Virus record (IMG/VR): IMGVR_UViG_3300045988_034528
Origin: a virus
Reading direction: 5' to 3' (one strand)
DNA: 64,000 nucleotides
Shown: in pieces, positions 31,601 to 50,666 of the stretch
How positions within the stretch are numbered: the first letter of the stretch is position 1
Layout: every line of letters starts with the position of its first letter
Program-made: the position numbers and the translations under genes
The notes under the pieces: model-generated
Told to the model about the DNA's origin: nothing
Databases searched by the model: none
Seen by the model: only the letters and a program-made list of their open reading frames with translations

Positions 31601-33945
31601 ATATCTGCTTTCTCATCTGCACTAAGTACAGTTTCATCTACCTCATTAATTTCCTTGATAAGACCATCTACAAACTTAGGATTAGTTGCCAATGTATGAG
31701 CCAGTACCTTATCATCTTGACCTCTAACCATATTAAGAGTGTTGATAGCACCTTCAATGGCTTTTACATTCTTATCTGCTTGTTTATATCTATCAGTTAA
31801 ATCAGCATGAGATTGACCTTCAAAGTCTCTTACTTGCTGATTGAATCTAAGGAATGAATCTAAGTTACCTATTACATCACTAATAGCTGACTTTACCTCT
31901 CCAGACATAGCTGTTGCCCTTTCAGCCCAGTTACCTATCTGAGACTTCATCCATGTCAATTCTTCAAGCTGACCATCTGATAATTGCTGACCTGTTCTAA
32001 GAATAAGTTCATCCTTTATATCTTGATACTCCTTTATTGTATTAAGAATGTCTTCCTTATTCTTGTTTATTTTGGAAGCCATCTCATTCATAGCTTCTTT
32101 AGTCCCAAAATTGGCTATTATATTGCCATTATCATCTTTAGAAGCATATTGGGAAAATGGTCCAATTAAATTACCCTCTTCATCCTTTGAAGTAGTATTA
32201 ACCACTATAGACTCTAAATCCTCTTGTGAAGTTCCTGATGCCTCATTTATAGCAGATTTTAAGTCTTCTAGCTTTCCTGCTTGGTCAAACATTACAATAT
32301 CAGATACTAATTGAGCATGTTCTGCATTTTTGAAGTTGAACTCATCACCCTGTTCAGCAGCCTGATTCATATCATTCTGATACTTATTATGTCTAATAAG
32401 TCCTTGATAGTAGTTTTTAAATTCAGGAGAGTTAACTCTATTATTCATGTAGTTAGCAATTTCATTCTCTCTTGCTATCTTATTCCTATAATCTCTCCAT
32501 TTATTTATGGCACCACCTTCAATAATAATAGGAGATTGTAGTGAGCCTGACTCACTTCTAATTCCTCTAAATCTTGGCATACCTAAAGCACCTGTAAGAG
32601 AGCCTATGAAAAACTCTTCCCATGCAGAGCCATCATTTACTGTCTCATTAATTCCCTCAGCAAATGATTTAGTCCAACTCAGAGTTTCTTGTGTAGCCTC
32701 TGGGTCAGTCTTTGACTTATAGAAGTTATTTACATCAGTAGAGTAATAATTACCTGATATTCTACTAGCCATACCTTGAGTAATTTCCTCAGTACCTTCA
32801 GACAGTGCCCCTTTAGTTATATTATAAGCAGCACCTAATCTTGTAGTTCCAGCTTTATATTCACCTGGCCTACCTAATATATTATAAGCTTTCCTAGATG
32901 TTTTGAATCCATTGGCATACAATTTACCAAACTGAATTATATTAGATGCAGTAAGGATGGGTATATTCATAAGTAAGTCTGCATTACCCATCTTTAACCT
33001 ATCCTCATTTAACTTACCTAATGCTTGGTTATATGCACTTTGTTCTGCTCTTACAAGTTGGTCATATATTTCAGTACCCCCATAGGTATTCTTTATACTC
33101 TGCAACCTTTGATTATACTCATCATCAAGCTGTGCTTTATGAAGTTCAAACCAGTCTTTACTATTATTAAGTGCTTCAATTCTACCTTCATTAACAGCAG
33201 AGGTAACTGAACCTAAGCCAGTTGCAACTATAGAAGATGCTTTACTTATACCCTTTAGAGTTTTAATCCCAGCACCTAATCTCTTAGCACCAACCATAGC
33301 TAATTTACCAAGACCTTTAACACCAGCAGCTCCTAAACCACCACTATAGAAAGCACCTACTGTAAAACCTAAGTTCTTGATAAACTTATCACCTAAGAAG
33401 TTAGCAGTGAAGATATTTTCATACCAAGGTTGTTCTTGCTCTGCTTTTGTATAATAGTTAGGTAATGCCTGCTCAGACCATTCATTAACAGACTGCATAG
33501 CCTTAGAAAAGTCATTATCCCAAAGACCAGACCATCTGTCTTCATTTCTTGCAGTTCCTGCTCCAAATAATAATCCTAAAGTACCATCAAGAAAAGTAGT
33601 ACCTGCAAGTATAGCACCTTTAGCAAGACCTGCTCCTATCTGTGCATACCAAGGTTGATTATTAGCTCTTATATCACTAAGATTATTAAACTCCTCTTCA
33701 TTTACTGAAGATTCATCAAATATACTACTGCCATATGTATCTTTTCCTTGACTTTGTTTATATATTGGAGAGTATTCTCCTCCTTCATATATAGTATCAC
33801 TAGGTTGTATATAACCATGAGGGGCTTTCATATTAGAAAACATGCTTTCAGAGGCAGCACTTTGATATGTTGCCTCATTAGCTTTCTGTAAATCTCTATA
33901 AGATTGTGGACCAGTCTTAGTTACATCTATTTCTTTTTTTGCCAT
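25672..33945 (-). CDS. Giant polyvalent virion protein (PD-(D/E)XK nuclease + HExxH metallopeptidase + PARP-like ADP-ribosyltransferase signatures)
   Basis: 2757-aa ORF with a Gly-rich hydrophobic N-terminal region. IAGEVDILSVDKNGNFRIYDVKTS lies at nt 27949-28005. GTAYHEAFHAVF has HEAFH at nt 26821-26835. The C-terminus reads KAFKDWFGDWEN...VVDENGEPLVVYHGGS...GTYFTTSKSNAKFY...SEYVVFNPNQIK (H at 26281-26283, E at 25897-25899). Confidence 0.75.
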   Translation of the reverse strand: MAKKEIDVTKTGPQSYRDLQKANEATYQSAASESMFSNMKAPHGYIQPSDTIYEGGEYSPIYKQSQGKDTYGSSIFDESSVNEEEFNNLSDIRANNQPWYAQIGAGLAKGAILAGTTFLDGTLGLLFGAGTARNEDRWSGLWDNDFSKAMQSVNEWSEQALPNYYTKAEQEQPWYENIFTANFLGDKFIKNLGFTVGAFYSGGLGAAGVKGLGKLAMVGAKRLGAGIKTLKGISKASSIVATGLGSVTSAVNEGRIEALNNSKDWFELHKAQLDDEYNQRLQSIKNTYGGTEIYDQLVRAEQSAYNQALGKLNEDRLKMGNADLLMNIPILTASNIIQFGKLYANGFKTSRKAYNILGRPGEYKAGTTRLGAAYNITKGALSEGTEEITQGMASRISGNYYSTDVNNFYKSKTDPEATQETLSWTKSFAEGINETVNDGSAWEEFFIGSLTGALGMPRFRGIRSESGSLQSPIIIEGGAINKWRDYRNKIARENEIANYMNNRVNSPEFKNYYQGLIRHNKYQNDMNQAAEQGDEFNFKNAEHAQLVSDIVMFDQAGKLEDLKSAINEASGTSQEDLESIVVNTTSKDEEGNLIGPFSQYASKDDNGNIIANFGTKEAMNEMASKINKNKEDILNTIKEYQDIKDELILRTGQQLSDGQLEELTWMKSQIGNWAERATAMSGEVKSAISDVIGNLDSFLRFNQQVRDFEGQSHADLTDRYKQADKNVKAIEGAINTLNMVRGQDDKVLAHTLATNPKFVDGLIKEINEVDETVLSADEKADITTKLNDIVKLGNASKTYNAKLKEYLKNPQKQAEDHARADEQATLQETKKKSDDLKASLNAAQNLQEFRSTIDAQDDTENRDKVLKELEDEGSEIAKNYRETSQYNNEVRRVLNESDAEPQVKQDAMKLLQDQFNNSDSLEYLANPNSIYINNENAFDEDSEGDVELSATRFQEAQYELQRAMSKVNNDNKFKDRFSPEYKKPVEKREGTVRGDDRTDTGDSGTTTTPTVTSSEALPTVELPVGNITAEMVSEENKKANEKVETPQRPSRDTTNQFYRPAIPELHIEASKEGDFRPFNVVVSEREKGVDFSEIYNYLLDNNAFEYVNQGNLKVGSELGFMIDPEYEKRVEGQSWHTQPTIFIIDKKNGQVVGSLDESDYSVSRYEGLKSLEEKIRSEYAERGSQSSKPSDNESQAEDRFNFNIKSETREVNYNVTPHKKIDSNGNTVITYSAKLTYVKGAPKGHQEGEIRTLEDGKAFIELDFDDIDFAEYAAGARRQDGTVVTKNNATKEEVEEGKKTITTLLTNQFTNKLEVGIRKIIITKDGRAFVDFSIGRDLRVPLKKEAVDKYVAKSISTKGKFIATPTTRVSKVMVGRVPYGNTERSLKDIPNVSSTDRKPIFGIIKNGVLTTNNKINDSLIIKPVDMSQKEGRLYMLIPNGAGKYSPAAVRVKHFNNEEFNLNDSSVSSTAIGEDIKNAITKLSTATSQDDVSAAMQDLAQDLYMQDIMITWFNSGTGDGIVISKKVRKPDGTYEKVTINGKEQIKEDKYDVYFSTSSKSAEIGGINFDVAALEDLGDTSALGTPKNPEDIYNEILGHLIKFNLPLQVSTRRINEGTYNNRLINSNILTSNITEASVRGTWFTTDYFDNESNLHQAISPASVAPQPKRKVETPVGGTEGAISGTRITSVFSNKPYYVDLKTNTIRDDQGKSVTITNDNRILFDLAWAQDNFGDSTNSSMMVDNKVLTPDGKVLDRSKQTYLSGQDAQDVKDTIAGRKKEREDRVTKSKEVISEIYENQKRVDKTRTDGEFYYVLEDDGEYHQYSRVHSRLGSNWIVSDKQTKTLELARLNLSKFVDNPTQYENYLKHLENKFKIDLTAYRDKTDAKSRDTIMNIVRDKMSSTNSQRALDAGLAVDSIIRQYFTIKDVSKIVKPSNMSENAFIDLITTLNRVKSNMEQMGERFLADNIVLFQKYPDGTRIAGEVDILSVDKNGNFRIYDVKTSRYSFYDFTDRYGHKVNYFTTPSATQRMSTKDYYTLQLSAYKNLFESQYGVPVTKLAVMPFVLSYDKENVSAVQSEKGIPIAYNPAVNVPLASAVKVDKSTETPATPAQAQTVLPIFETSLETQNPIEDLTPEHSMNNADEGVGYFELDGKLHKGYVTPLTVIDGVEVYITKVPNITKGFGRETEVVHVASNSFYAVFPNGKTFLFLKNNQVQEGMIQSQVEDAIKKGLEAKPQKVKELASEKTILFDPDAVPTVNATPITTVETPATINQGNTQTGAAYTTQKEQAINNKKASRTRHKLRKVKSPDYEKWDEKKELKWLNKVLPQLSESDRVKVVKGLIKVGKRGTLAWGQFDKGVITLSDIAAEGTAYHEAFHAVFNLLLDNDERQALYDEARKLYGEKDNLSLEEDMAEGFREYVTTRQNAGLLGKIKNFFRDLWIKVTNWNSIRPHLTAYYQMINRGEYSNRELPVKTLSQARAGQEEYSKEMQDILTKAPRNSEGKLLVKPGGPVSNLTERQYAQVRTKAFKDWFGDWENDPENASKVVDENGEPLVVYHGGSSAKIFNTKGGQFGAGIKKGDIGTYFTTSKSNAKFYEEIYTFKSEEKWIELADLVREGLLNDEDKKKMDEAWEIEKPSTRAFFLNIRNPKITNYEGTRKKGYTKKDSNIGDNDGQHIIISDANYSEYVVFNPNQIKSATDNVGTFSRTNDDIRYRKVPNSSFESLDTEMQKNLLKKGWTVEKFDSISQEERDQAIKCIAF

Positions 33946-33946
33946 A

Positions 33947-35776
33947 TTAATACCAAGGATTTATTGTTTCATCAGATGTTTTGGAGGGGACTACAGCTTG
34001 TGAACCATAGCCATATAAATCTTGAAGAGCCTCTTCTTGTTTATGTTTCAAATCTATTTTATCTGCTTGTGTTAAAGGAGTTGAGGTATATAAAATATTA
34101 CCCTGTGAATCTGTCATTATATTACCTTTCCTATCTATTTTAGGTCTTTTATTTTCATGTAATATACTTCCCCAATAATCTGCATTATAAATAGCCTCTT
34201 TTACATTAGATTCACTGCCTTTATTAATACCAGCAGGCATTTGTACTCTAATAACTTCATTTTTTCCCTCTTTGGTAGATTGAAGAATTGCAGTATTTCC
34301 ATATTTAGAATACCTTATATTAGTTATAGTATAACCTTCAAGGTCCTTTTTGCTGTATGCTTTAGTTTGCTTCCAGCCATTTTTTCCATTAAATTCTGCA
34401 CCATACACAACTTTTTCTCCATCTTCAGTCCTAGCAGCAGCCCACATTTGGGTTGTATAAGCATCTCCATATTCTGAAGAAAGCTGTCTGTCATACTCAG
34501 TAGAGTGATAGGTATCATAAGAACCTTCCTTTATACTATTCTCATATCTATTAAGTCTTGTAGTAGGAGTATTTACTTTACCTGTTTTTATGTCATATCC
34601 TCCAATATTTCTATCATACCAAGTAGAAAACTGATTAGGTCTACTGCTCATACTTTTAACTTGTGCTACCATATCATCATATGCTGCTCTTGAGACTCCA
34701 GGATTAGCCCTTTTATAAATTTCCCAACTCTGTATAGTAGGTGTAAAATGGCTTGCTCTGAGTTTTTTAAGACCTCCTCTAGTTAGTACAAGACCCTCGG
34801 AGGTTCTCTTTAAATAACCTTGTTTTATGAAAGTCTCTATTTGTTTATTATTTTCAGATACTTCTTGAGGACTTCTCAATGGAAGGGGATTAACTTTATA
34901 TTTATTTTCATTAGATTGTGCAGCAGCTGCTCTCTTTTCTGCTCTCTTCTGCATTGCCTCCTGCTCAGCCATCTTAGCCCTCCAATTATCAAGAGTCTGG
35001 TATTGAGTCTCACCAACTGCACTCCATAGACCTTGTTTAGCATAGTCAATAGCTCTTGCAATAGTAGCTTGGTCTCCCCAATTTCTAACACCACTTGAAT
35101 TAATGGCATCTTCAACAATCCTTGTAAGTTGAGGAGCAGCATTAGGATTATCCTGTATAGCCTGTAATACTGCTTGAGAACTAAAGCCTTTCTGCATCAT
35201 AGATTCATAATATGAATTACCCAAGATGCTTCTCCACTTCCTTGGCTTCTCTTGCATTTCCTTAGCCAATGCAGATGCAGCACTTGCAGCCTGTGCAGTA
35301 ATTAACTTACCTGAATATGCTTCATAAGCTAATTGAGGATTCCTTATATAGTCATCAAGACTTGTAGTACTTGCTCTTCTACTCAACATCAATGTTGGGT
35401 CTTGAAGAAGTGCTTGTTGCTGTTGTTCTGCTTGTTTCTGTCTTGTTGCATAGGCTTGTTCAATAGGAGTTATCTCCTTACTATACCTTGCTTTCATGTT
35501 AAGCATATCTCTTCTACTTGCAGCATTAAGTCCTTCTCTTGCTAACTGATCTGCTTGTGCTTCAAGGTCATTTGCATAAGTCTTATACATCTTGTAAGCA
35601 TAAGGGTCAGTCTGTTCATTAGCCATCTCTTCCCATACATTAGCCTTGGCAGATAGTTCTCCATACTGGTTCTCTAACTCTTGATGAGCTTGAGTAGCCA
35701 TTAAAACAGGCTGAAGCATTTCCGAGTAAGAGAATGGCTTGAATTGTGAATTTATTACTAAACTATAATTAGCCAT
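33947..35776 (-). CDS. virion (ejection/cargo-type) protein, unknown function
   Basis: Long ORF. The track start at 35782 is GTG. The ATG at 35776 is preceded by AAGGAGGTGAAA and overlaps the upstream stop. Q/A-rich helical N-terminal half. Confidence 0.65.
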   Translation of the reverse strand: MANYSLVINSQFKPFSYSEMLQPVLMATQAHQELENQYGELSAKANVWEEMANEQTDPYAYKMYKTYANDLEAQADQLAREGLNAASRRDMLNMKARYSKEITPIEQAYATRQKQAEQQQQALLQDPTLMLSRRASTTSLDDYIRNPQLAYEAYSGKLITAQAASAASALAKEMQEKPRKWRSILGNSYYESMMQKGFSSQAVLQAIQDNPNAAPQLTRIVEDAINSSGVRNWGDQATIARAIDYAKQGLWSAVGETQYQTLDNWRAKMAEQEAMQKRAEKRAAAAQSNENKYKVNPLPLRSPQEVSENNKQIETFIKQGYLKRTSEGLVLTRGGLKKLRASHFTPTIQSWEIYKRANPGVSRAAYDDMVAQVKSMSSRPNQFSTWYDRNIGGYDIKTGKVNTPTTRLNRYENSIKEGSYDTYHSTEYDRQLSSEYGDAYTTQMWAAARTEDGEKVVYGAEFNGKNGWKQTKAYSKKDLEGYTITNIRYSKYGNTAILQSTKEGKNEVIRVQMPAGINKGSESNVKEAIYNADYWGSILHENKRPKIDRKGNIMTDSQGNILYTSTPLTQADKIDLKHKQEEALQDLYGYGSQAVVPSKTSDETINPWY

Positions 35777-37364
35777 TTTCACCTCCTTTCTTAATAGTTA
35801 AATAGCCACTCTTAGCTTTCTTATCTTCTTTCTTATCTTCTTTCTTCTTTCCTTTATATGGAGTTCCAGCTCCTCCTGTTGAGATTGCATAATATAAAGC
35901 TGGGTTCTCATTAATCCAAGCTTTCATTACTTCTTCTCTACCAATATCACCAAGAGAATTAAAGAAGTTAGTAAGATTAGCACTCATACTTGCACCTCTT
36001 CTTGCATCAACAGCATCTCTTACTGCCATAGCCTGTGCAACACCACTTAGTCTTGAACTTCTTGCCTTTAATGCAGCTTCTTGGTTAGCCATTGCAGCCT
36101 TGAGTCCCATCTCAGAGTTAAACTGGTTTGTACCTCTATTAAATGTAGCCACTCTTTCTCTCTGACCTAGATTATATTCTTCTGCTTGCCTTGCAAGGTC
36201 TCCTAGTTTACCTTGTGCATTATAATCAGCAGCTAATAGACCAGCCAATGCTGTTGCTCTATTTCCTGCACTTTGATTTACAATAGCTCTTCTAGTAGCA
36301 CCAGATTGTGCATCAAGTTTATTGATATAGTAGTTCCTATCAAAGGGTCTGTATGTTAAATAATCACCCAATGGATTAAACCCAACTGGGGTATATCTTC
36401 CCACTTCATTAGCTGCATTAAGTATAGCATCTGAACTTGAATAGTCAGGCTTACTGAATATATTTTGTCCAAGACCTATTGCAGCTCCTACTACAGGAGC
36501 ATATCTTAGTGCAGTAAGGTCAAATTTTTTATCATTAGATTCATCATTAGTTCCTTTATTAATAGATTCTGCTGCTTGTATATCCTCTATAGGTACTCCT
36601 AAATGTGAAGCTCTGGAGTATGTCAAACCTTCAGGGGTAAGGATTCCATTATTATCATATATTGAAGGGGCAGTAGTTGATGTTTGGTCAGGAACACTAT
36701 CTCCAAAAAGATGTGCTCTTCTAGAAAGATTTAAGAAATTAGCATCTGGCCCATAGCCATTAAATAATGTACCCATTTTACCACCATGAGCATATTGTAT
36801 ACCACTATTTTCTTCTTGGTCTTGCTGTCTTAAAGATTCTTGTACCTGTTGTAACTTGGACATTGAATCAAGTAGGCCCCTTCTACTTATTGGGTCATTA
36901 GGTCTTTCTTCAGCTTCCTTACTTAATTTCTTTGCAGCTTTTGCAAAAGTAAGGTTCTTGCCTTTACTCAAACCTAAAGAACTTCTCATACTATTGGGAA
37001 CATTCATTCTATCACTAAATACATAATCATTAAAGATTACTTCTCCCTCTTCAACTAAATTAGGAACACCTTGCTTATCTACTCCCATAGGTACTCCTTC
37101 CATAGGATTCTCTTCATGAGTACCACCATTACCTATTATAATAAGACCATTACTAAAATCTCCCCCATTAGTATTAAGGTCCCCACCAAAGCTGTGCCAC
37201 TTAGCTGCATTCCTTGCAAAATTAGCCTTCTTTACCATAGCAGGAGAATAATTCTCTTTATTAGCTAATACTTGGGAAGCAAATGATTGTACAGACTTTC
37301 CATGCTTCTTTGCAGCAGCAGTAAATGTACCTCTCTTAGATTTCTTTATTCGTATTTTCTTCAT
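35769..37364 (-). CDS. virion protein, unknown function
   Basis: 531-aa ORF with a basic N-terminus (KKSKRGTFTAAAKKHGKSVQSFASQVL) and a Lys/Glu/Asp-rich C-terminus. Sits between tail genes and the giant protein. Confidence 0.65.
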   Translation of the reverse strand: MKKIRIKKSKRGTFTAAAKKHGKSVQSFASQVLANKENYSPAMVKKANFARNAAKWHSFGGDLNTNGGDFSNGLIIIGNGGTHEENPMEGVPMGVDKQGVPNLVEEGEVIFNDYVFSDRMNVPNSMRSSLGLSKGKNLTFAKAAKKLSKEAEERPNDPISRRGLLDSMSKLQQVQESLRQQDQEENSGIQYAHGGKMGTLFNGYGPDANFLNLSRRAHLFGDSVPDQTSTTAPSIYDNNGILTPEGLTYSRASHLGVPIEDIQAAESINKGTNDESNDKKFDLTALRYAPVVGAAIGLGQNIFSKPDYSSSDAILNAANEVGRYTPVGFNPLGDYLTYRPFDRNYYINKLDAQSGATRRAIVNQSAGNRATALAGLLAADYNAQGKLGDLARQAEEYNLGQRERVATFNRGTNQFNSEMGLKAAMANQEAALKARSSRLSGVAQAMAVRDAVDARRGASMSANLTNFFNSLGDIGREEVMKAWINENPALYYAISTGGAGTPYKGKKKEDKKEDKKAKSGYLTIKKGGENG

Positions 37365-38103
37365 ATACTACACTATTCCAAGTTTTACCCCTTTTAATAT
37401 CTTTATAGATATTAACAGTTATATTAAATTTAGCTATTATATCACTTCTTTTAACATGGTGATATATTGCCTTCTTTATATTATATACAATTTCATTTGT
37501 GAGCTTAGTAAATGAAGATTCTTCTCCACATTTATGGTTATTTCTATTTCCAGAAGAGGGTTTTCTATTTGCATATCTGTCTGGATTATTTTTTATATAG
37601 GTTCTTCTAGCTTGTCTTCTCTCCTCTGTCCATTTCTTCCTTGTTTGCTTTGGGTTATTCTTATAGAAATCTTTAAGACCTTTACTAATATTCTCACAAA
37701 AATCTTTACTTCTTTTTATCCCCTTTAATTTACTGGCTCCCATTTTTCTCATATTATTATTATTCACATGAGCCATAGTTCTGGAGTCCTTAATAATATT
37801 AAAACCATTATTTATACTATCAAATCTATCTATATAGTAAATTTCTCTATCAATTCTCTCATCTCCAGTACTATTTGGCATACTCTCCAATATATCAAAA
37901 GTCAATGTACCTATTCCATATTTGTTTACAAAACTTTGTAATTTGATATTACAATGCTTTCCTAATAGTAAACTAGATTTATGCCTTCCATATCTTTTGT
38001 AGAAATTTTTGCATTCACCTATATACACTCTACTATCTATAGTATTTCTGATAATATAAATACCACCTAATTTTCTTTTATTATATTCTGGTAAAAATTT
38101 CAT
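37336..38103 (-). CDS. Free-standing GIY-YIG homing endonuclease
   Basis: GGIYIIRNTIDSRVYIGECKNFYKRYGRH (GIY...YIG...R) at the N-terminus and a basic DNA-binding-like C-terminal half. ATGA overlap with the upstream gene. 29-nt overlap with the 5' end of the downstream gene. Confidence 0.8.
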   Translation of the reverse strand: MKFLPEYNKRKLGGIYIIRNTIDSRVYIGECKNFYKRYGRHKSSLLLGKHCNIKLQSFVNKYGIGTLTFDILESMPNSTGDERIDREIYYIDRFDSINNGFNIIKDSRTMAHVNNNNMRKMGASKLKGIKRSKDFCENISKGLKDFYKNNPKQTRKKWTEERRQARRTYIKNNPDRYANRKPSSGNRNNHKCGEESSFTKLTNEIVYNIKKAIYHHVKRSDIIAKFNITVNIYKDIKRGKTWNSVVYEENTNKEI

Positions 38104-38912
38104 AATATCTCCACATCATATCCTAGTCTATTTAATTCTTTTATTTCATCATCAGTAATATCATCTACATCAAAATCTCCCTCTAGAACTCCCCCCTCTT
38201 TATAATATTTTTTACCATTTAGTATATAACCAGGTATTCCCCCACCATTAGCAAATGTATTACCAAAAGGAGACATTGTCCCTGTATATCTCATAGTTAA
38301 AGGGCCTCCATAAGCTGCGTAATTAGCATTTAACATTTCATTTGTTCTAATATTATCAACAGAATTTCTAACAGAAGATAAGTACCTTTCATTAGCAAAG
38401 TCTCTATCTCTATTTAAAGAGGCTGTTAAATTCTTTGCTTTATTTGAGAATAATCCATCCTTTCCTACTTGAGATTTACTTATATCTCCTAATAAGGAAA
38501 CATCACTATATTGGCTCAATAGACTATCATAATTATCTGCATTAAGAACAGTATTTGCCATTTGAGTATTTTGATTTCTAAAATTAGAGACTGCCTGTTC
38601 ATTTATTTGGCTTCCAAATAATCTATTTACTAATCCTCCTATTACATTAAGTCCTACTCCAGCTACAGCTCCCCAAGGACCAGGAATAGCACTAGCTATA
38701 GTACTTAATCCTTGTGTAACATTGCCTACTCCAGTGGAGAATCCTCCTGAAATACCTTGACCTGCCATAGAACTAGCAGCACCAATAGCACTATTAAGTA
38801 CCCCACTATTAAAGACATTGTCCATGTTCTTTCCAAAGCCAGCACCTTTTTGCCACGAGAATCCACCAACATCAAAATAGTTAGCTCTTCTCTTTCTTAT
38901 TTTCTTAGCCAT
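38100..38912 (-). CDS. Gly/Ser/Asn-rich virion protein, unknown function
   Basis: 270-aa ORF. First gene after a TAnnTTTG motif. Confidence 0.6.
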   Translation of the reverse strand: MAKKIRKRRANYFDVGGFSWQKGAGFGKNMDNVFNSGVLNSAIGAASSMAGQGISGGFSTGVGNVTQGLSTIASAIPGPWGAVAGVGLNVIGGLVNRLFGSQINEQAVSNFRNQNTQMANTVLNADNYDSLLSQYSDVSLLGDISKSQVGKDGLFSNKAKNLTASLNRDRDFANERYLSSVRNSVDNIRTNEMLNANYAAYGGPLTMRYTGTMSPFGNTFANGGGIPGYILNGKKYYKEGGVLEGDFDVDDITDDEIKELNRLGYDVEIL

Positions 38913-44198: not shown

Positions 44199-44726
44199 TT
44201 ATTCTTTATTTAATAGAAAGGCATCTATTCTGCCATCCTTAATATTCTTTTTAAGAGCTTTCTTTAGTTCTCTATTGGCATTAAATTGGTAGAAAGACTT
44301 ATTTGTATAGTCTGCCTTAGCCTTGTTATAATAAATTTTGAATATCTCTTTTTCCTCCATTTTAATGAGTGTTCTACTCTTATAGGCTTCCTCATCTTCA
44401 CACCATAATTTAAGAGTTTTATCCCAGTCTATAGGTAAATTAGTTTTAATTTTTCCATCATCAAAACTAAATTTAGCATTATACTTTCTCAATTCTATCT
44501 TACCCATTCTATGAGGTAATTTAATATCATTACCAATAGAAAGATTATAGGCAAGTTCATTATTTATCTTTCTAATTATACTATAAAACTCATGCTCAGT
44601 AAGTCTTTGACCTATATCAGCCCATTGTCTCTTTCTTAGGAATTTATAGACATCATAAACACCTAATGACTTAGTTACTTTATGAACTCTAGGCTCATTT
44701 AATTTAAGAAGTTCTTCTCTAGTCAT
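44199..44726 (-). CDS. possible IHF/HU-fold DNA-binding protein
   Basis: 175 aa. The segment INNELAYNLSIGNDIKLPHRMGKIELRKY resembles the HU/IHF arm region, and an IHF-like gene is conserved in crAss capsid modules. Weak. Confidence 0.35.
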   Translation of the reverse strand: MTREELLKLNEPRVHKVTKSLGVYDVYKFLRKRQWADIGQRLTEHEFYSIIRKINNELAYNLSIGNDIKLPHRMGKIELRKYNAKFSFDDGKIKTNLPIDWDKTLKLWCEDEEAYKSRTLIKMEEKEIFKIYYNKAKADYTNKSFYQFNANRELKKALKKNIKDGRIDAFLLNKE

Positions 44727-45448
44727 TAAGATTCAATTTGCTTCTGTAAGTTTGATTTAGCATTTCTTGCTATGTAGTTAGCTAGATTAGCTAAGTCATC
44801 CTTAGCATTATTCTCGTCATCTGCTTTGCTATATATAGCTCCTGAAAGTTCCTTAACTACTAGATTTATCAGAGATGGAATTATTGCATCTTCAAGAGGA
44901 AACTCTTTGTCAAGAATATCACAGCTCTCTGATTGTTCACACTCCAATTCTAAGGCTTTTTCTGCATCACTAAATACTCCAGTAAACTTTATTTCCTCCA
45001 AGTAGTAAAGTTGTGGATTTGAAGATTTCAAGTATAAATACCCATCAGGCCCTTTAGTAGCATAAATTATATTCTGTAGCCATTTATTGTGACCTACATA
45101 TCTCAGCCTATCTCTAGATACATAGGTTATCTCCCCATTGAAGTAGTCATCTGAATGTACCCTAGATTGTCCTATATTCATAGTCTCAGGTATCTTCTTA
45201 GTACTTCTCATATAGGTACCTTCACAAGGCAGTCCCTCTATTCCTTCATGCTCTTCTAGGTCTAAGCACAAAGTCTGATAGTTAGATAAAGGAATTTCCT
45301 TCCTTATATCAGAGTATCTTTGCTTTAAGAGAAATGCTCTATACTTACTCAGCAAGAATATAATATGGTCTTCAGTAAAAGATGAATCATCACTCATAAG
45401 TTTTAATTCATCTAATACTAAGTACACTAGTTGTCTATATGTTCTCAT
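44726..45448 (-). CDS. putative head-to-tail adaptor / tail tubular protein
   Basis: 240-aa ORF. First gene after the promoter-like motif at 45478-45485. TAATG-coupled to the next gene. Confidence 0.4.
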   Translation of the reverse strand: MRTYRQLVYLVLDELKLMSDDSSFTEDHIIFLLSKYRAFLLKQRYSDIRKEIPLSNYQTLCLDLEEHEGIEGLPCEGTYMRSTKKIPETMNIGQSRVHSDDYFNGEITYVSRDRLRYVGHNKWLQNIIYATKGPDGYLYLKSSNPQLYYLEEIKFTGVFSDAEKALELECEQSESCDILDKEFPLEDAIIPSLINLVVKELSGAIYSKADDENNAKDDLANLANYIARNAKSNLQKQIES

Positions 45449-45459
45449 ATTGATACATA

Positions 45460-45514
45460 TTAAAAAAGTTCTTGAGACAAAGATACTAAGAATTTATCAA
45501 TGTCACAAGAACTT
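45460..45514 (-). terminator. Hairpin (terminator-like) after the glycosyltransferase gene, overlapping a TAnnTTTG motif (45478-45485)
   Basis: Minus strand: AAGTTCTTGTGACA - 21-nt loop - TGTCTCAAGAACTT (one mismatch) then TTTTTTA. The loop/stem contains TATCTTTG, 29 nt upstream of the ATG at 45448. Confidence 0.4.
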
Positions 45515-45547
45515 TATTGTTTTAGTTATTGTTCTTACAAAGTTTTA

Positions 45548-47851
45548 TTAACAGAATACCTTAGCATTCAATTCAAGGAAATAGCTCATATCATGCTTTG
45601 CAACTTTAGTGAAGAAATACTTCTTAAAGCTAACTAACTTATTATAGTTTTGCATCAACATAGCTTTAGCATCATTAAATGCCACATCCCCAATTCTCTT
45701 TCTAAGATGTTCCTCATATACAGGAATCTTATCATCAGAAGAAAATAGATGAATTAAATACAACTGATTATGGTCTACCTGTGTACTAGTTACTACATAA
45801 TTACCTCCATTTCTATAAAGATGGCCTACTCCCCAATTCTTGATAAGAAGAACTTCACCTCCTGCAAGCCATGTTTTTATAGACATCAAAGGTTCATCTA
45901 GTCCATATTTTATAAGACCTGTAAGCCCTCCAATTTTAAACCACCATTCTACACTTGAAGCATAAACTGCACCAAGGACACAAGAAACAGGAATTACTTC
46001 TGCATTGGGATTTTGGTCTAGTAGCTCACCTGTCCATTTAGCTGTGTATTCCCATCCTGATTCTGTCATATTAACAGATGCTGCATAAGTACCAAAAGAG
46101 TGCCTTCCTTGAATACCATCTTCATTCAGATAGATATTATTTTCATCTTTACCAAAATAAATAGTATTAGAGGTTATCAATCTTTCTGGATTTTCCTTTA
46201 GAAGTTTAACTAACCTCTCATCCCAATTAGTTTCATAAAACCTCATATGAGCATCTAATAACACAAAGTATGGAGTAGTACAATGAAATACACCAAAGTT
46301 TCTAGAACCTGCTACACCAAGATTAGTCTTATTTCTATAATAATCACATCCAAATATTTCAGCTACTTTCTTGTAATTATATCCATCATTGCTATTATCA
46401 TCAATGAGCATAATCTTTACATCTTTGGCAGTTCCTCTTACAGAAGTAACAGTTTTTTCCACTTCATATCCCTCATTCTGAAAAGGAATAATTACAGTAA
46501 GTTGTGCAGTATCACTATTTTTCTTATTATAAGCATTGACTATACAATTACCTACTTCATTATAAGACATACCATGGTCATAATACTTTTCCATGTTTGT
46601 AGAACTCTGATTAGAATGCTGTCTATAATAAGTGACAATATTAGGAATATTATGTATTCTCTTATCATGAGTTAACATAGTATGCCATAGTTTAAAATCT
46701 TCATACCCATCATATATTTTTTCATACATAAAAGGTAAAGATTTTAAAGAACTTGTCTTCATCATTACTGTAGGATGGGCTATTGGATTATTACCTCCTC
46801 TAAACCATTCTAAAGGAATATCAATTTCATCATAAGTAAAATATTCCTTTTCCAATTTACCATTTCCCCATTCAAATCCAGCAGTAATCATGTCATACTC
46901 TGGATGTTCACACATGAACTTATATTGGACTTCAAGTCTATTTGGATACATCATATCATCAGCATCCATTCTAGCTATATAAAGACCAATAGCCCTTCTA
47001 ATACCTAAATTAAGAGCTTCTGATATACCATTATGCTCCTTTTTTATGTATACAACTCTATCGTCTGTATAAGATTTAATTATACTTTCTGTACTATCAG
47101 TGGAACCATCATCAACAATGATAAATTCAAAATCAGTAAAAGTCTGGGCAAGTACACTATCTATACATTCTCTAAGATATTTTTCTCCATTATATACAGG
47201 CATAACTACTGAAATCATCTTATAGTGACTAGTCATACCTAAGTGTATAGCATGAGTATCTTCAGTAGGATGAAATTCATCTACAGGATAGAAATACATT
47301 TTAGGATAAATAGTAATCCCATCAAACTTTTGTAATAGATTAACATCTGAACTAAAGTTATATAATTTCCTTACACTTGCTGTTGTATCATAGATATTAT
47401 TACATATATTAAGGGAACCATCTTTTTTAATATAATGCTTATTATTATACTCATCTAGCAATGACTTTATTACAGGATTATATTGTTCTGCTCCTATAAC
47501 ACCCCAGCCTATTTCACCAGGGTTTATCATTCCTACAAACATCTTGTTATCCAGGAATGAGTCTAGTGATTTAGTAACCATTTGGTCAGCATCTAAATAA
47601 ATACCTCCATAGTTATATAATGCCCATAATCTAACATAGTCTGCCATATAAGCATAGGACCCACATCCACACTCATAGCATTCTTTTACCCAAGGTACAG
47701 AATTAATATTAAAAGTATCTTCATTCCATACTTTAATTTCATAGTCTGGTAAAATATTTTTCCATGATTCAATACTCCTTTGAACTACTATTGGAAGAGG
47801 TTTATTTTTATCTTTACTAAACCAACAATAATGTATTATCTTAGGAATCAT
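45548..47851 (-). CDS. Three-domain glycosyltransferase (GT32-like + GT2 + GT27/ppGalNAc-T-like GT-A domain)
   Basis: aa 1-210: IPKIIHYCWF...GGIYLDAD. aa 212-330: VVMPVYNGEKYL...FIIVDDGSTD...RMDADD. aa 450-690: LTVIIPFQNE, LIDDNS, LLDAH (DxH, nt 46247-46255) and YGLDEPLMSIKTWLAGGEVLLIKNWGVGHLYR (Gal/GalNAc-T-motif-like). Confidence 0.8.
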   Translation of the reverse strand: MIPKIIHYCWFSKDKNKPLPIVVQRSIESWKNILPDYEIKVWNEDTFNINSVPWVKECYECGCGSYAYMADYVRLWALYNYGGIYLDADQMVTKSLDSFLDNKMFVGMINPGEIGWGVIGAEQYNPVIKSLLDEYNNKHYIKKDGSLNICNNIYDTTASVRKLYNFSSDVNLLQKFDGITIYPKMYFYPVDEFHPTEDTHAIHLGMTSHYKMISVVMPVYNGEKYLRECIDSVLAQTFTDFEFIIVDDGSTDSTESIIKSYTDDRVVYIKKEHNGISEALNLGIRRAIGLYIARMDADDMMYPNRLEVQYKFMCEHPEYDMITAGFEWGNGKLEKEYFTYDEIDIPLEWFRGGNNPIAHPTVMMKTSSLKSLPFMYEKIYDGYEDFKLWHTMLTHDKRIHNIPNIVTYYRQHSNQSSTNMEKYYDHGMSYNEVGNCIVNAYNKKNSDTAQLTVIIPFQNEGYEVEKTVTSVRGTAKDVKIMLIDDNSNDGYNYKKVAEIFGCDYYRNKTNLGVAGSRNFGVFHCTTPYFVLLDAHMRFYETNWDERLVKLLKENPERLITSNTIYFGKDENNIYLNEDGIQGRHSFGTYAASVNMTESGWEYTAKWTGELLDQNPNAEVIPVSCVLGAVYASSVEWWFKIGGLTGLIKYGLDEPLMSIKTWLAGGEVLLIKNWGVGHLYRNGGNYVVTSTQVDHNQLYLIHLFSSDDKIPVYEEHLRKRIGDVAFNDAKAMLMQNYNKLVSFKKYFFTKVAKHDMSYFLELNAKVFC

Positions 47852-47883
47852 ACAGGTAACTTTTTATTTTATGTAATAGTTAA

Positions 47884-48543
47884 TTATTCTGAGGGCATAG
47901 GTATACCTACTGGAAGATTTATATTAGGTGTTAGGCTTCTACTAAAGTTTATCATTTCTCCTGAAATATTAACTGAAATACCTGCATTTGATTCCAAATT
48001 AAGTATAACAGGTGCTGAGGTACTAGTAGTAGTTGTAGTTGTAGTTGTAGTAGTTGTAGTAGTTGTAGTAGTTGCACTAGCAGCAATAACTTCTACTGTA
48101 ATTGTAGACCCTGCTCTTGCTCCAGATTTAGTATATGGAAGAGAAACAACACTTCCATCAATTTTAACCTGTGATATTTTCCAGTCACTATCTGTCATAG
48201 TAGCAGTATTAAATCTAATGTCTAATTGACTTAATAGATTATCTACACTACCTACAGTAAGAGTCTTAGAGGTTCCTTCTTTAGGCACTGAAACAGTTCC
48301 AATAGAAGACCCAGTTACAATATAAGTACCTAATGAATTACCTTTAAAAATAATTGTAATAGGCTTTGGGAGATATTTAAAATATATTGATTCTTTTTCT
48401 CCCGCATTTACTTTAGTAACCAATGTTTTATCGGAACTATATAGACCTCCTGTTTTTCCTGCAAACATTCCTTTGTATTCTAGGTAGTCTGCTACACCAT
48501 TTTCATTACTAACCTTAATAGTAAGGATTCTACTTGTTGCCAT
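47884..48543 (-). CDS. beta-rich small protein with a 16-residue poly-Thr linker (candidate glycosylated virion decoration/fibre protein)
   Basis: 219-aa ORF containing AASA-T16-STSAP. Lies 32 nt upstream of the GT gene on the same strand. Confidence 0.65.
   Translation of the reverse strand: MATSRILTIKVSNENGVADYLEYKGMFAGKTGGLYSSDKTLVTKVNAGEKESIYFKYLPKPITIIFKGNSLGTYIVTGSSIGTVSVPKEGTSKTLTVGSVDNLLSQLDIRFNTATMTDSDWKISQVKIDGSVVSLPYTKSGARAGSTITVEVIAASATTTTTTTTTTTTTTTTSTSAPVILNLESNAGISVNISGEMINFSRSLTPNINLPVGIPMPSE
48025..48072 (-). repeat. Coding trinucleotide microsatellite: 16 consecutive Thr codons (ACT/ACA only)
   Basis: The + strand reads (AGT/TGT)x16. Nested AGTTGT and AGTAGTTGT periodicities are visible. 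Confidence 0.9.
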
Positions 48544-49309
48544 TGTTTTTAAATATTAAAGTTAAAGATATAAGATTTAAATCTGTTTTATAAATATAGT
48601 TATCTTCGTTAGATAGAAGTTCCCCAGTGTCACTATTATAAAAACCTATTACATTATTATAAGTATCTGAAGGTAAAGTAAATGTAATTTCTCTTTCAGT
48701 AGATGAGAAAACAAAATTTAAAATATTATCATCTAATATAAAAGGTTCTGCACCTTTAGATGTAATAATATTTATTTGCCTACACTTCTGTGGTAAATTA
48801 GTATCTAAGTTTTTTGTATCTATTCTAATAGAGCATGTCTCACTTTTAAGTGCGTATTCCTCCATATTACTACTAGTTTTAATAGTATTATTTACAATAC
48901 TGTTTCCAACTATAGTAGGAGAATTAGATGCTACTGTAACTTCTACCTTAACATTATTTATATTAGAATCAAGTACAATATAAGAAGAGGTATCTACTAT
49001 TTCAGAAAGAGTTTTAAAAAACTCTTCTTTTGTTTTAATACCATTATTTATCTTATAGTTTTCATAGGTACTATCGGATTTTTCTACTAAATTAGAATCT
49101 TGTATTCCTCCTTTAAACCAGTATTCAACAATAGTATTGTCTTTTTTAATTCCAACAGTTAGACCTACACATCTTTTAGAAGATGTAAGTGCAGTTAATG
49201 CTGCACTTACATTATCATATGGTCCATATCTAAGGTCTAATGAGGGGTAAGGATTAAAGGAGTTATCACTAGCATTAAGTGATATAAGTTCATTTATACT
49301 TACTGCCAT
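48530..49309 (-). CDS. hypothetical protein of the accessory cassette (fibre/decoration-like)
   Basis: 259-aa ORF with an ATG start. The N-terminus LDLRYGPYDNVSAALTAL...GLTVGI...VEYWFKGGI looks like a conserved anchoring domain, followed by an Asn/Ser/Thr-rich beta region. Confidence 0.6.
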   Translation of the reverse strand: MAVSINELISLNASDNSFNPYPSLDLRYGPYDNVSAALTALTSSKRCVGLTVGIKKDNTIVEYWFKGGIQDSNLVEKSDSTYENYKINNGIKTKEEFFKTLSEIVDTSSYIVLDSNINNVKVEVTVASNSPTIVGNSIVNNTIKTSSNMEEYALKSETCSIRIDTKNLDTNLPQKCRQINIITSKGAEPFILDDNILNFVFSSTEREITFTLPSDTYNNVIGFYNSDTGELLSNEDNYIYKTDLNLISLTLIFKNNGNK

Positions 49310-49314
49310 ATCAA

Positions 49315-50094
49315 TTATTTATTTTTAGCCCTTATACTTATCATTTCTGGGATACTTCCTGAATTAATATATGCAAAATAAACATCATAATCTATACCTT
49401 TATAACTACCTCCCTTATTATAAGGAGCAGTTCCTCCTCTTGTATATTTAGAATAATATGCTCCATTAGGAGTTGGGTCTAATGCTGTAAGAGTATTAGG
49501 TTTACTTGAATCATAATAAGTAGAAGTTAGTCCTCCAGAAGTAAATGCTGCATATTGTAATTCTACTTTATCTACAGGAATAATTAAATATGAAAAATAA
49601 CCATCTTGAGGAATAGTAAATTCATTTACAGAATCTCCTATAATAGGTTTAAATTTTGTTTCTGATCTATCTATTAGTTCATTTATAGGAATTGAACAGA
49701 AACTATTAGGGTCCATATATTCCTTAATTACTCCATAATATACTGTATTACTAGGTTTTGTAGTTGTAGTAGGAGTAATTACAGGTGGGGGAGTTGAATT
49801 TCCACCATTGCAACATATACATACACAACAAGGTCTATTATTAGTTGGAAAAGATATTTCACAAGTAGAGCCAAGGAATTGGTATAATAAATCTTGCATC
49901 AGTTTAATATCTTTGTTTGTTATATAATATCTTAGCTCAGTGTGAGTGATTTCATAAATAAAGTCTATAACTAGCATTTTGAATACTACATCATAGCTCT
50001 TATATCCTGTATGAGCCAAGGTTTTGAAATATCTTACTAAAGTATCATACATTAACTCATTCATGACATCCACATCCATTGCTAGGTTTAACAC
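49315..50094 (-). CDS. hypothetical protein with CCVCICC cysteine cluster and Pro/Thr linker
   Basis: 259-aa ORF. The track start at 50094 is GTG; ATGs at 50079, 50064 and 50052 are alternatives. CCVCICC lies at nt 49810-49830, followed by NGGNSTPPPVITPTTTTKPS. Confidence 0.6.
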   Translation of the reverse strand: MLNLAMDVDVMNELMYDTLVRYFKTLAHTGYKSYDVVFKMLVIDFIYEITHTELRYYITNKDIKLMQDLLYQFLGSTCEISFPTNNRPCCVCICCNGGNSTPPPVITPTTTTKPSNTVYYGVIKEYMDPNSFCSIPINELIDRSETKFKPIIGDSVNEFTIPQDGYFSYLIIPVDKVELQYAAFTSGGLTSTYYDSSKPNTLTALDPTPNGAYYSKYTRGGTAPYNKGGSYKGIDYDVYFAYINSGSIPEMISIRAKNK

Positions 50095-50611
50095 TAATGG
50101 AGTTAGTAAATTTCTTCCAATATGTTATAGCTAGTGGGTAGTCTCTAGTTTTAAGACAAATTTGAAATGCTTTATATTTTAGAATAAAATCAATAAAAGC
50201 TCTAGGGATATTACATCTATCATAGGTTTCATTAAGATATTTCAAAGCCTTTCTGTAGATAGGATAAGCATCTACTCCAACTCCTAAAGTAACAGGAGAA
50301 TCTAAACCACAAGGTACATCACAAGAAGGAATTCCTTTTGTAATCACATACACAAAGAACATATTACCTTCCATAGTAGGAACTAATAAATCTGTATTTT
50401 TGATAGTCATTTGTACTCTTTTCTGATTACCAGAAATAGTATGGAAATACACTGGATGTTTACTTATACCATCTTTATTAAAAGTATTTTGTGTATCTAT
50501 TACTATCTTATCTATATATACATCCTTAAAATAAGGCATATCTAGAACAGAACAATCTATATAAAGGCCCTTATTATAAGGGATAACAAATAATTTATTA
50601 AATTCTACCAT
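50057..50611 (-). CDS. hypothetical protein, first gene of the accessory cassette
   Basis: 184-aa ORF with an ATG start. Ends in ...NGCGCHE. Confidence 0.6.
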   Translation of the reverse strand: MVEFNKLFVIPYNKGLYIDCSVLDMPYFKDVYIDKIVIDTQNTFNKDGISKHPVYFHTISGNQKRVQMTIKNTDLLVPTMEGNMFFVYVITKGIPSCDVPCGLDSPVTLGVGVDAYPIYRKALKYLNETYDRCNIPRAFIDFILKYKAFQICLKTRDYPLAITYWKKFTNSISVKPSNGCGCHE

Positions 50612-50623
50612 ATCAAGTTCTTT

Positions 50624-50666
50624 GATTAAAAAAAGTAAGGATGAGGGCTATAAAACCCTCATCCTT
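50624..50666 (-). terminator. Rho-independent terminator after the 349-aa structural gene
   Basis: Perfect 11-bp stem AAGGATGAGGG / CCCTCATCCTT with an 8-nt loop. Followed on the minus strand by ACTTTTTTTAA. Confidence 0.75.

Follow-up and report, generated by a model that had tools for sequence, protein, structure and literature searches.

We investigated a 64,000-nucleotide stretch of the IMG/VR virus record IMGVR_UViG_3300045988_034528 (the window), a partial genome of a crAss-like phage, and in particular positions 45548-50611. Here, a glycosyltransferase (GT) gene follows the genes of tail hub protein B (THB) and of two further proteins, named p259 and p219, and both THB and p219 carry threonine-rich tracts. 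We consider it somewhat probable that this region encodes a protein O-glycosylation module of the phage, which decorates accessory appendages of the tail collar. The sequence statements of an earlier note on the same DNA were all correct, and its interpretation, which had proposed mucin-type glycosylation of virion proteins by this GT, was partly supported.

The three-domain glycosyltransferase and its third domain

As listed in Table 1, the GT is a protein of 767 amino acids (aa). The earlier note had read it as a fusion of three GT-A-type domains, the first GT32-like and the second GT2, and Pfam bore this out. Domain 1 matched Gly_transf_sug (PF04488) over aa 23-103 above the gathering threshold (E 1.7e-15, 57.9 bits vs a cut-off of 23), contains the DXD motif expected of a GT32-type enzyme and also matched PF05704 with 42 bits; its weak PDB matches were to the glucosyltransferase domain of TcdA (E 2.5e-4) and to an alpha-1,6-mannosyltransferase of the Och1 type (E 2.7e-3). 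Domain 2 showed the features of a classical GT2, with Glycos_transf_2 (PF00535) at aa 214-331 (200.6 bits vs a cut-off of 23.3; whole-protein E 2.1e-59) and the motifs FIIVDDGSTD and RMDADD, and its PDB matches were generic GT2 enzymes such as K4CP chondroitin polymerase (E 8.9e-29), GalT1 and SpsA. When domain 3 was scanned alone, a second Glycos_transf_2 stretch was found at about aa 452-578 (E 6.7e-21). Neither a transmembrane (TM) segment nor a signal peptide was detected in hydropathy scans of the GT, p219, p259 and THB; for the GT, the maximum 19-residue Kyte-Doolittle value was 1.29. Among 1725 GT homologues, the full three-domain architecture was retained down to about 35% identity. 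The domain-3 family comprised about 420 representative clusters at E <= 1e-30, in which domain 3 occurred alone, with domain 2, with domains 1 and 2, with a C-terminal extension, or with domain 2 and a LanC-like domain.

The assignment of domain 3 to the GT27 type, the polypeptide GalNAc-transferases (ppGalNAc-Ts), had been made by eye and was confirmed by sequence and profile searches and by fold. In a phmmer search of aa 429-767 against PDB sequences, the best 5 matches were all GT27 enzymes (E 2.6e-10 to 9e-7), and the alignments began at the first beta-strand, included the DxH motif and reached GH-x-(F/Y)-R, the closing residues of the Gal/GalNAc-T motif. A domain-3 profile built from 12 diverse homologues was then searched against the PDB with hmmsearch, and ppGalNAc-Ts ranked top (E 1.4e-20, profile positions 12-275), the 12 best sequences being GalNAc-T2, T3, T7, T9, T10 and T12, while ordinary GT2 enzymes matched the profile only over about its first 100 residues. 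The AlphaFold2 (AF2) model of domain 3 had a pLDDT of 90.9 and a pTM of 0.90, and the top 50 Foldseek matches of this model in the PDB were all GT27 (TMq 0.66-0.78 over about 330-350 columns), coming from Drosophila, human, mouse and Toxoplasma gondii, including TgGalNAc-T3.

LLDAH lies where the earlier note had placed it, and the 32-residue motif YGLDEPLMSIKTWLAGGEVLLIKNWGVGHLYR follows about 114 residues later. This motif aligned without gaps to the GT27 motif WGGENiEmSfRvWqCGGqLeimPCSvVGHvFR, with G, S, W, GG, GH and R kept. D533, H535 and the distal H677 correspond to the D-x-H plus His metal triad of GT27, and D485, D533, H535, E653, H677 and R680 were invariant in all 25 full-length homologues, which are 36-82% identical to the window protein. 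Pfam gave no Ricin_B_lectin match in the GT, and in the AF2 model a helical segment of the catalytic domain is the last element of the protein. The hydropathy scan likewise revealed no type II membrane anchor. By alignment and model, domain 3 is GT27-like in fold and catalytic centre, and it lacks these two architectural features of the eukaryotic family.

Compared with GT27 enzymes (ppGalNAc-T or PGANT, e.g. human GalNAc-T2 and Drosophila PGANT9), domain 3 thus has the same GT-A fold, metal triad and GH-x-(F/Y)-R ending, and the candidate acceptors in the phage are likewise Thr-rich, Pro-flanked and mucin-like. It differs from them in sequence (only about 20% identity), has neither a ricin-type lectin domain nor a type II anchor, is predicted to be cytoplasmic, and forms part of a bacterial-virus protein together with two more GT domains. 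Among the nearest predicted viral structures in BFVD, several were uncharacterised phage GT-A proteins labelled PF11397 'GlcNAc' (Skp1 GlcNAc-transferase family), and the PF11397 match over the DxH region was faint and not significant (E 0.15). GT60 polypeptide alpha-GlcNAc-transferases (Skp1 Gnt1) resemble domain 3 as soluble, cytoplasmic, lectin-less relatives of GT27 with a DxH motif that glycosylate a protein side chain, in GT60 either a hydroxyproline in Skp1 or a Thr in trypanosome mucins; the PDB matches of domain 3 are GT27 and not GT60.

The insert in the tail-hub operon

To define the limits of the insert, 35 loci were anchored on Ring protein 2 (Ring 2) and annotated for synteny. 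All 24 GT-negative relatives with readable open reading frames (ORFs) showed the order auxiliary capsid protein (AuxCP), tail hub protein A (THA), THB of 82-128 aa and Ring 2. No Thr tract was found across about 20 kb in any of them, including the two with one extra ORF of 200-210 aa. Every THB-slot locus with a three-domain GT (the window, L001, L086-L091, L094 and L121) instead had an extended THB, then p259-like and p219-like ORFs with Thr tracts, and then the GT. Within about 20 kb of the structural genes of these loci, Thr tracts occurred in these three kinds of ORF only. In the window, the inserted part begins near THB codon 97 (about nt 49806) and extends as far as the GT stop codon at 45548; it contains the Thr/Pro-linked C-terminal extension of THB, p259, p219 with its T16 tract, and the GT. 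The earlier note had taken four small ORFs for an inserted accessory cassette, which did not hold, because the 184-aa ORF is THA and the N-terminal domain of the 259-aa ORF is THB, both core structural genes. The inverted repeats which it had described as flanking hairpins do exist, at 45462-45518 and 50637-50666, but they bracket THA through GT rather than the accessory insert.

The ORF at 49315-50094 (minus strand) was identified as THB by a domain match above threshold and by its place directly after THA. As the earlier note had stated, this 259-aa ORF contains the linker STPPPVITPTTTTKPS, and p219 with its T16 tract ends 32 nt from the GT; homologous THB linkers reach 29 residues in relatives. 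In the cryo-EM structure of crAss001, THB is a virion protein, and each of the 12 fibre-docking hubs around the tail barrel consists of two THA and one THB of about 107 aa (PMC10172136). By homology with this structure, THB of the window would be present in 12 copies around the tail barrel. The N-terminal ~90 residues and the THA-THB gene order are shared with crAss001 THB (gp39; PF25711). Unlike that protein, the window THB is extended by a Thr/Pro linker with a module of 140 aa, and in near-identical phages the extra residues number up to about 680.

THB length was found to be plastic, with 259 aa in the window, 774 aa and several modules in L086 (GT 98-99% identical) and 376-469 aa in the 79% clade. 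In relatives, the C-terminal module of the window THB recurred at the end of longer THB forms or, in L001, at the C-terminal end of a distinct protein of 491 aa. In the reverse test, this module was detected in IMG/VR on GT-positive contigs only. Thr runs mark each module junction in the THB-slot proteins. Modules were also observed to be swapped between THB, p259-like and p219-like proteins exactly at the Thr-run junctions (L001:3517-7941, L086:3819-6143 and L087:4981-6390 vs window 47884-50094), and the repetitive ACN codons may serve as recombination or slippage sites behind this plasticity.

We next examined p219 and p259. The tract of p219 reads AASA-T16-STS-AP, and the protein had no Pfam or PHROG match. 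Its 42 homologue clusters all came from crAss-sized contigs, and every one of them had a near-pure Thr tract, of 6-14 residues vs 19 in the window; tract length differed even between near-identical phages. In the window p259 is without a Thr tract, whereas its orthologues in relatives have them. As a separate observation, the first ~78 residues of p259 were 47% identical to the N-terminus of crAss002 gp19 (L157:5992-9453), a 1153-aa protein with LTD and metallophosphatase domains that is annotated 'phosphatase', and the segment shared by these sequences may be a common attachment domain for tail appendages. crAss002 gp16 and gp17 gave no match to the THA and THB models, and the p259 N-terminus as a hub-docking domain remains a lead only.

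The GT gene belongs to the late tail operon and is read in the same direction. The search for terminators gave no such hairpin in the 32 nt that separate p219 from the GT and no terminator-like site on the coding strand inside the cassette downstream of THA, and sigma-70 promoter-like sites were at the level of shuffled controls (35 found vs 35.1 expected).

Thr tracts, peptide clusters and competing explanations

To evaluate the association of the GT with Thr tracts, homologous loci were compared with controls. The only strong Thr tracts in the 64-kb window are the two beside the GT, and poly-Thr proteins were present within 10 kb of GT homologues in four genomic contexts, namely the THB slot, L122, L155 and L156. 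The THB-slot clade comprises the window, L001, the L087 type and L121 (GT 61% identical). In L122, a distant 138-kb crAss-like phage (GT 58% identical), the GT occupies a different slot directly after a 1539-aa protein with poly-Thr linkers, in which no sequence similarity to the window modules was detectable. In L155 (56%), a protein of 903 aa encoded 5 kb away carries T7 and T13 tracts, and L156 (50%) has an upstream leucine-rich-repeat protein with a T11 tract together with S/T-rich ORFs. As a control, strict poly-Thr tracts were found in 1 ORF in 71 unrelated GT2-containing viral loci (~1.0 Mb), a background set reused from a locus search based on full-length-GT alignment (79 loci, mostly irrelevant generic GT2), and in no ORF of 26 GT-negative crAss-like loci (0.49 Mb), which gives 1 ORF in 97 loci (~1.5 Mb). 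Against this background, the tracts beside the GT are not a chance feature. A Pro residue occurred within +4 after 44 of the 48 distinct Thr runs, usually as x-P-P or x-A-P, compared with a background of 13.7%; classical GT27 enzymes prefer acceptors with Pro at +1/+3.

A related GT branch of about 800 aa, fused to a LanC-like domain, aligned with aa 213-762 of the window GT at 35% identity (E 3e-89) and kept LLDAHMRFY and GH-x-YR. These enzymes were found in the IMG/VR contigs L139-L144 and in a Bacteroides metagenome-assembled genome (L145-L147), in clusters like those of ribosomally synthesised and post-translationally modified peptides (RiPPs). The clusters also hold a radical-SAM/SPASM maturase, a GG-leader precursor and an outer-membrane barrel protein, with a C39-peptidase ABC exporter in L139. 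The precursor core is Cys-rich with CGPTTPTTPTTPTIGPSASPTPTVTT in L139 and rich in Cys, Asn, Ser and Thr in L145. A GT encoded in a precursor-peptide cluster would, by the logic of such clusters, have the peptide as its substrate, and by analogy these relatives argue for peptide substrates of the GT family. Glycocin-type RiPPs with SunS-type GT2 enzymes likewise have a GT2-type enzyme beside a leader-containing precursor and a C39-peptidase ABC exporter. SunS itself matched domain 2 weakly (E 1.2e-4), and the Bacteroidales clusters add the GT27-like, LanC-like and radical-SAM/SPASM parts. No description of this combination was found, the literature searches not having been aimed at it, and the clusters may be a class of glycosylated peptide not yet described.

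These results are consistent with the following mechanism. The module would act in the cytoplasm late in infection, the site being predicted because the GT, p219, p259 and THB are without TM segments or signal peptides. Domain 3, a retaining, GT27-like domain, would transfer the first sugar, probably an N-acetylhexosamine (HexNAc), from a UDP-sugar to linker Thr hydroxyls in THB, p219 and the related modular proteins. The predicted acceptor peptides are of the Thr-tract type, such as ASATTTTTTTTSTSAPV, and the THB linker. Domain 2 (inverting GT2) and domain 1 (retaining, GT32-like) would then add the second and third sugar. The product would be short mucin-type glycans, packed densely on linkers that are extended and exposed to proteases, stand out from the tail collar and carry beta-rich modules outward. 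Speculatively, the benefits could be linker stiffening and resistance to gut proteases, and possibly shielding or adhesion. Glycosylation of the tracts by the general Bacteroidota O-glycosylation system of the host was rejected, as the proteins have no signal peptides and that system acts outside the cytoplasm; for the same reason the argument of the earlier note from the Bacteroidota sequon was beside the point.

Several observations weigh against this proposal, and the case is a well-supported but wholly computational hypothesis. For about six more distant GT lineages, 41-52% identical (L004, L012/L092, L123, L125, L127 and L138), the search within 10 kb gave no mucin-like tract, and L124 showed weak S/T-rich segments only. 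Poly-Thr is therefore no obligatory partner of this enzyme family. The link between GT and S/T-rich neighbours proposed earlier stood in so far as it lies above background and recurs in independent contexts, but these orthologues without such a neighbour partly agree with one observation which the earlier note had named as refuting. Positive contexts amounted to about 4 in 10, far above background yet not universal, and since the THB-slot cases are one clade, co-inheritance inflates the raw counts. Pro/Thr linkers in general share the Pro-ended look of the Thr runs, and Thr/Pro stretches are plain flexible linkers in many secreted and fibre proteins. By sequence, p219 and p259 are candidate virion proteins only, and the AF2 model of p219, all-beta with a disordered tract, was unreliable (pLDDT 57.6, pTM 0.41). 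Domains 1 and 2 resemble ordinary polysaccharide-type GTs. In YGLDEPLMSIKTWLAGGEVLLIKNWGVGHLYR, YGLDE stands in place of WGGEN and the Cys residues are missing, which makes the sugar-binding part unlike that of GT27. Because YGLDE replaces the sugar-contacting WGGEN, the donor sugar is not assignable as GalNAc, and donor and chemistry may differ from those of GT27.

The lineages without mucin-like neighbours include the two-domain L012/L092 and the single-domain L138, and were phage-like contigs of 36-380 kb in which large co-directional ORFs adjoin the GT. A correlation of domain-1 presence with Thr tracts was considered and rejected, as several three-domain GTs are also without Thr-rich neighbours. 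A second small GT gene was observed 1-2 kb downstream of the distant three-domain GTs in L125 (14353-15213, weak Glyco_transf_92) and L127 (13546-14400, GT2), which hints at longer glycan pathways there.

Another explanation is that the GT is indeed a protein or peptide GT whose main or sole target is not poly-Thr; it would modify Ser/Thr on folded domains of fibre-like, other virion or host proteins, and the tracts would be ordinary linkers common in a hypervariable region. Such a target would suit L004, L012, L123, L125 and L127, where the GT adjoins large co-directional ORFs (254-2833 aa) without mucin-like tracts, as well as the L145 precursor, which is Cys/Asn-rich and not Thr/Pro-rich, and the weak likeness of domain 1 to the protein-glucosylating toxin TcdA. 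It leaves unaccounted for the enrichment of poly-Thr beside the GT in four contexts vs 1 ORF in the 97 control loci, the regular x-P-P endings of the runs and the Thr purity kept in all 42 p219 homologues, and we consider it unlikely, though it retains some weight. A quite improbable explanation is that the GT is a moron acting on host envelope glycans (capsule, lipopolysaccharide (LPS) or lipid-linked intermediates), with receptor change or a superinfection block as examples of its effect, and that its place beside Thr-rich proteins only reflects a hot spot where accessory genes recombine. PHROG matches were labelled 'GtrB-like O-antigen conversion' (E 7.6e-19) and the best NCBIfam matches, far below their cut-offs, were polysaccharide GT2s such as EpsE, TuaG and WcaA, but these matches span only the generic N-terminal half of the GT2 (aa 212-324). 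Domain 2 does resemble chondroitin and heparosan synthase domains, whereas domain 3 matched GT27 over its full length and not polysaccharide GT2s. Infection by crAss-like phages interacts with capsule phase variation (PMC11601342), and some GT lineages are without Thr-rich neighbours. The GT, however, is without a TM segment, and its neighbours are tail proteins, with no GtrA- or GtrC-like, flippase or polymerase gene nearby as a Gtr-type module would have; it lies in the late virion operon of a generally virulent phage type, and the examined contexts of homologues, each phage-like or a RiPP-like cluster, included no capsule or LPS locus.

It is very hard to credit that the GT glycosylates phage DNA (hypermodified bases) for restriction evasion. 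DNA-modifying phage GTs are well known, according to the literature cited in PMC12619734, but the GT lies among the tail genes, separated from the replication module by more than 20 kb and encoded on the opposite strand; no base hydroxymethylase was detected among the replication-module ORFs of at least 200 aa that were scanned, domain 3 has the GT27 fold and its relatives lie in peptide clusters.

Returning to the O-glycosylation module on tail-collar appendages, its joint reading with the peptide clusters is one that we put forward tentatively, with slightly more doubt than confidence: crAss-like and some other large gut phages would carry out mucin-type O-glycosylation in the cytoplasm, in which a lectin-less GT27-like domain starts on poly-Thr and two fused domains extend the glycan on at least 12 collar whiskers, and the same module would tailor Bacteroidales radical-SAM RiPPs.

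Table 1 Features of the region and of related clusters; positions refer to the window unless a locus is named
Feature	Position	Strand	Basis
Ring protein 2	44726..45448	-	PF25702, E 4.8e-63; directly after THB in GT-less relatives
Imperfect inverted repeat between GT and Ring 2 genes	45462..45518	.	24-nt arms, 83% complementary; terminator call negative
Three-domain soluble glycosyltransferase, 767 aa	45548..47851	-	ORF and Pfam
GT domain 3 (aa 441-767), predicted GT27-like polypeptide-HexNAc-transferase-type catalytic domain without lectin domain	45548..46531	-	Profile and fold
Gal/GalNAc-T-like motif YGLDEPLMSIKTWLAGGEVLLIKNWGVGHLYR, aa 649-680, including H677 and R680	45812..45907	-	Aligned column for column to GT27
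D533-A-H535, DxH metal-binding motif of domain 3	46247..46255	-	LLDAH = aa 531-535; aligned to DAH of GalNAc-T3, T9, T10
GT domain 2 (aa 211-440), classical GT2, inverting	46532..47221	-	PF00535
GT domain 1 (aa 1-210), GT32-like retaining-type GT-A	47222..47851	-	PF04488, PF05704, DXD motif GGIYLDAD
p219, 219 aa, candidate acceptor substrate, all-beta	47884..48543	-	ORF; ends 32 nt before GT start
Poly-Thr tract T16-S-T-S, p219 aa 158-176, then A-P	48016..48072	-	ACT/ACA 9-nt-type repeat
p259, accessory protein	48530..49309	-	ORF; N-terminal ~78 aa shared with crAss002 gp19
THB, 259 aa, with C-terminal extension	49315..50094	-	PF25711 crAss_THB aa 9-85, 65.8 bits vs cut-off 27
THB C-terminal module, aa 119-259, on linker	49315..49740	-	Recurs in relatives
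Thr/Pro linker STPPPVITPTTTTKPSNTV, THB aa 100-118	49741..49797	-	Tract scan
THA, 184 aa, core gene outside insert	50057..50611	-	PF25724, E 2.8e-53
Terminator-like hairpin between AuxCP and THA genes	50637..50666	-	11-13 bp perfect stem then T-run
Bacteroidales RiPP-like clusters	L139:9248-18475 (also L140-L144); L145:8001-17028 (also L146, L147)		GT2 + GT27-like + LanC-like fusion

Known systems and genome setting

In mycobacteriophages, virion glycosylation by phage-encoded GTs is established (Freeman et al. 2023, as cited in PMC11256854 and PMC12619734). As described in these citing papers, phage GTs modify extensions of structural proteins, namely the C-termini of capsid and tail-tube subunits, while the candidates here are the C-terminal extension of a tail-hub collar protein, THB, and inter-module linkers, in a different host phylum and phage order. 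The arrangement in the window is of this type, with the GT in the tail operon and a Thr/Pro-linked THB extension that is absent from the 24 GT-less relatives. In the chlorovirus PBCV-1, multidomain GTs (A064R and A111/114R) build the capsid glycans, each domain adding one sugar. These enzymes are likewise virus-encoded, cytoplasmic and three-domain and serve a virion protein glycan, but they belong to a eukaryotic giant virus, make atypical N-linked glycans on the major capsid protein and are of unrelated domain families.

Full-text literature searches found no description of glycosylation or of this GT in crAss-like phages, as the earlier note had supposed, and no phage GT27-like enzyme. Relative to known phage virion glycosylation, the new elements are the enzyme type (lectin-less, cytoplasmic and GT27-like), the target (a tail-hub extension and mucin-like inter-module linkers) and the phage group. 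crAss-like phages are among the most abundant human gut viruses, and their virion survival and persistence there are poorly understood. If the proposal is true, gut phages would have a new kind of surface chemistry, a mucin-like coat that they make themselves on tail appendages, with possible effects on resistance to proteases, contact with mucus, recognition by the immune system and binding to receptors. GT27-type initiation of protein O-glycosylation, which is regarded as essentially eukaryotic, would then also occur in bacterial viruses and in the making of peptide natural products by Bacteroidales. Glyco-engineering could make use of a compact soluble three-domain enzyme that might build a defined O-glycan on simple Thr tracts in the cytoplasm of bacteria.

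The window has a GC content of about 0.26-0.37. Replication functions (UDG, NrdD, family A DNA polymerase (PolA) and ThyX) are encoded on the plus strand in the first 25 kb, and the virion module lies on the minus strand from about 25.6 kb. Its members are cargo proteins 1 and 2, the muzzle protein, Ring 1, Ring 2, THA, THB, AuxCP and the major capsid protein, which all matched curated crassvirus Pfam families (E 1e-18 to 1e-228). Among GenBank phages, megablast found no close DNA relative of the cassette, and tblastn of the GT gave partial generic GT2 matches and no full-length homologue. Near-identical and 79-82% related contigs of about 93-102 kb are present in IMG/VR and in Logan/ENA assemblies.

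Some further features of the virion module were noted. The gene of cargo protein 1 (window 37340-38242, minus strand) is split after about codon 226 by an insertion of about 900 nt with a GIY-YIG endonuclease ORF (PF01541, E 2.8e-8). The split region contains the ORFs 38100-38912, 37336-38103 and 35769-37364. The two ORFs flanking the insertion match cargo protein 1, the 270-aa ORF over residues 1-226 and the 531-aa ORF over residues 226-848; this protein is intact, with 857 aa, in a near-identical relative (L094:11184-13757), and no Rfam model of a group I intron matched around the insertion. A 2757-aa ORF (window 25672-33945, minus strand) has a C-terminal ART-PolyVal ADP-ribosyltransferase domain (PF18760, E 2.2e-12) and one weak Thr-rich segment, DSGTTTTPTVTSSEA, at aa 1002-1016. 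In the GT-negative relatives L107 and L114, conserved structural genes were broken into many short ORFs under table 11, which suggests stop-codon reassignment, as is known in some crAss-like lineages.

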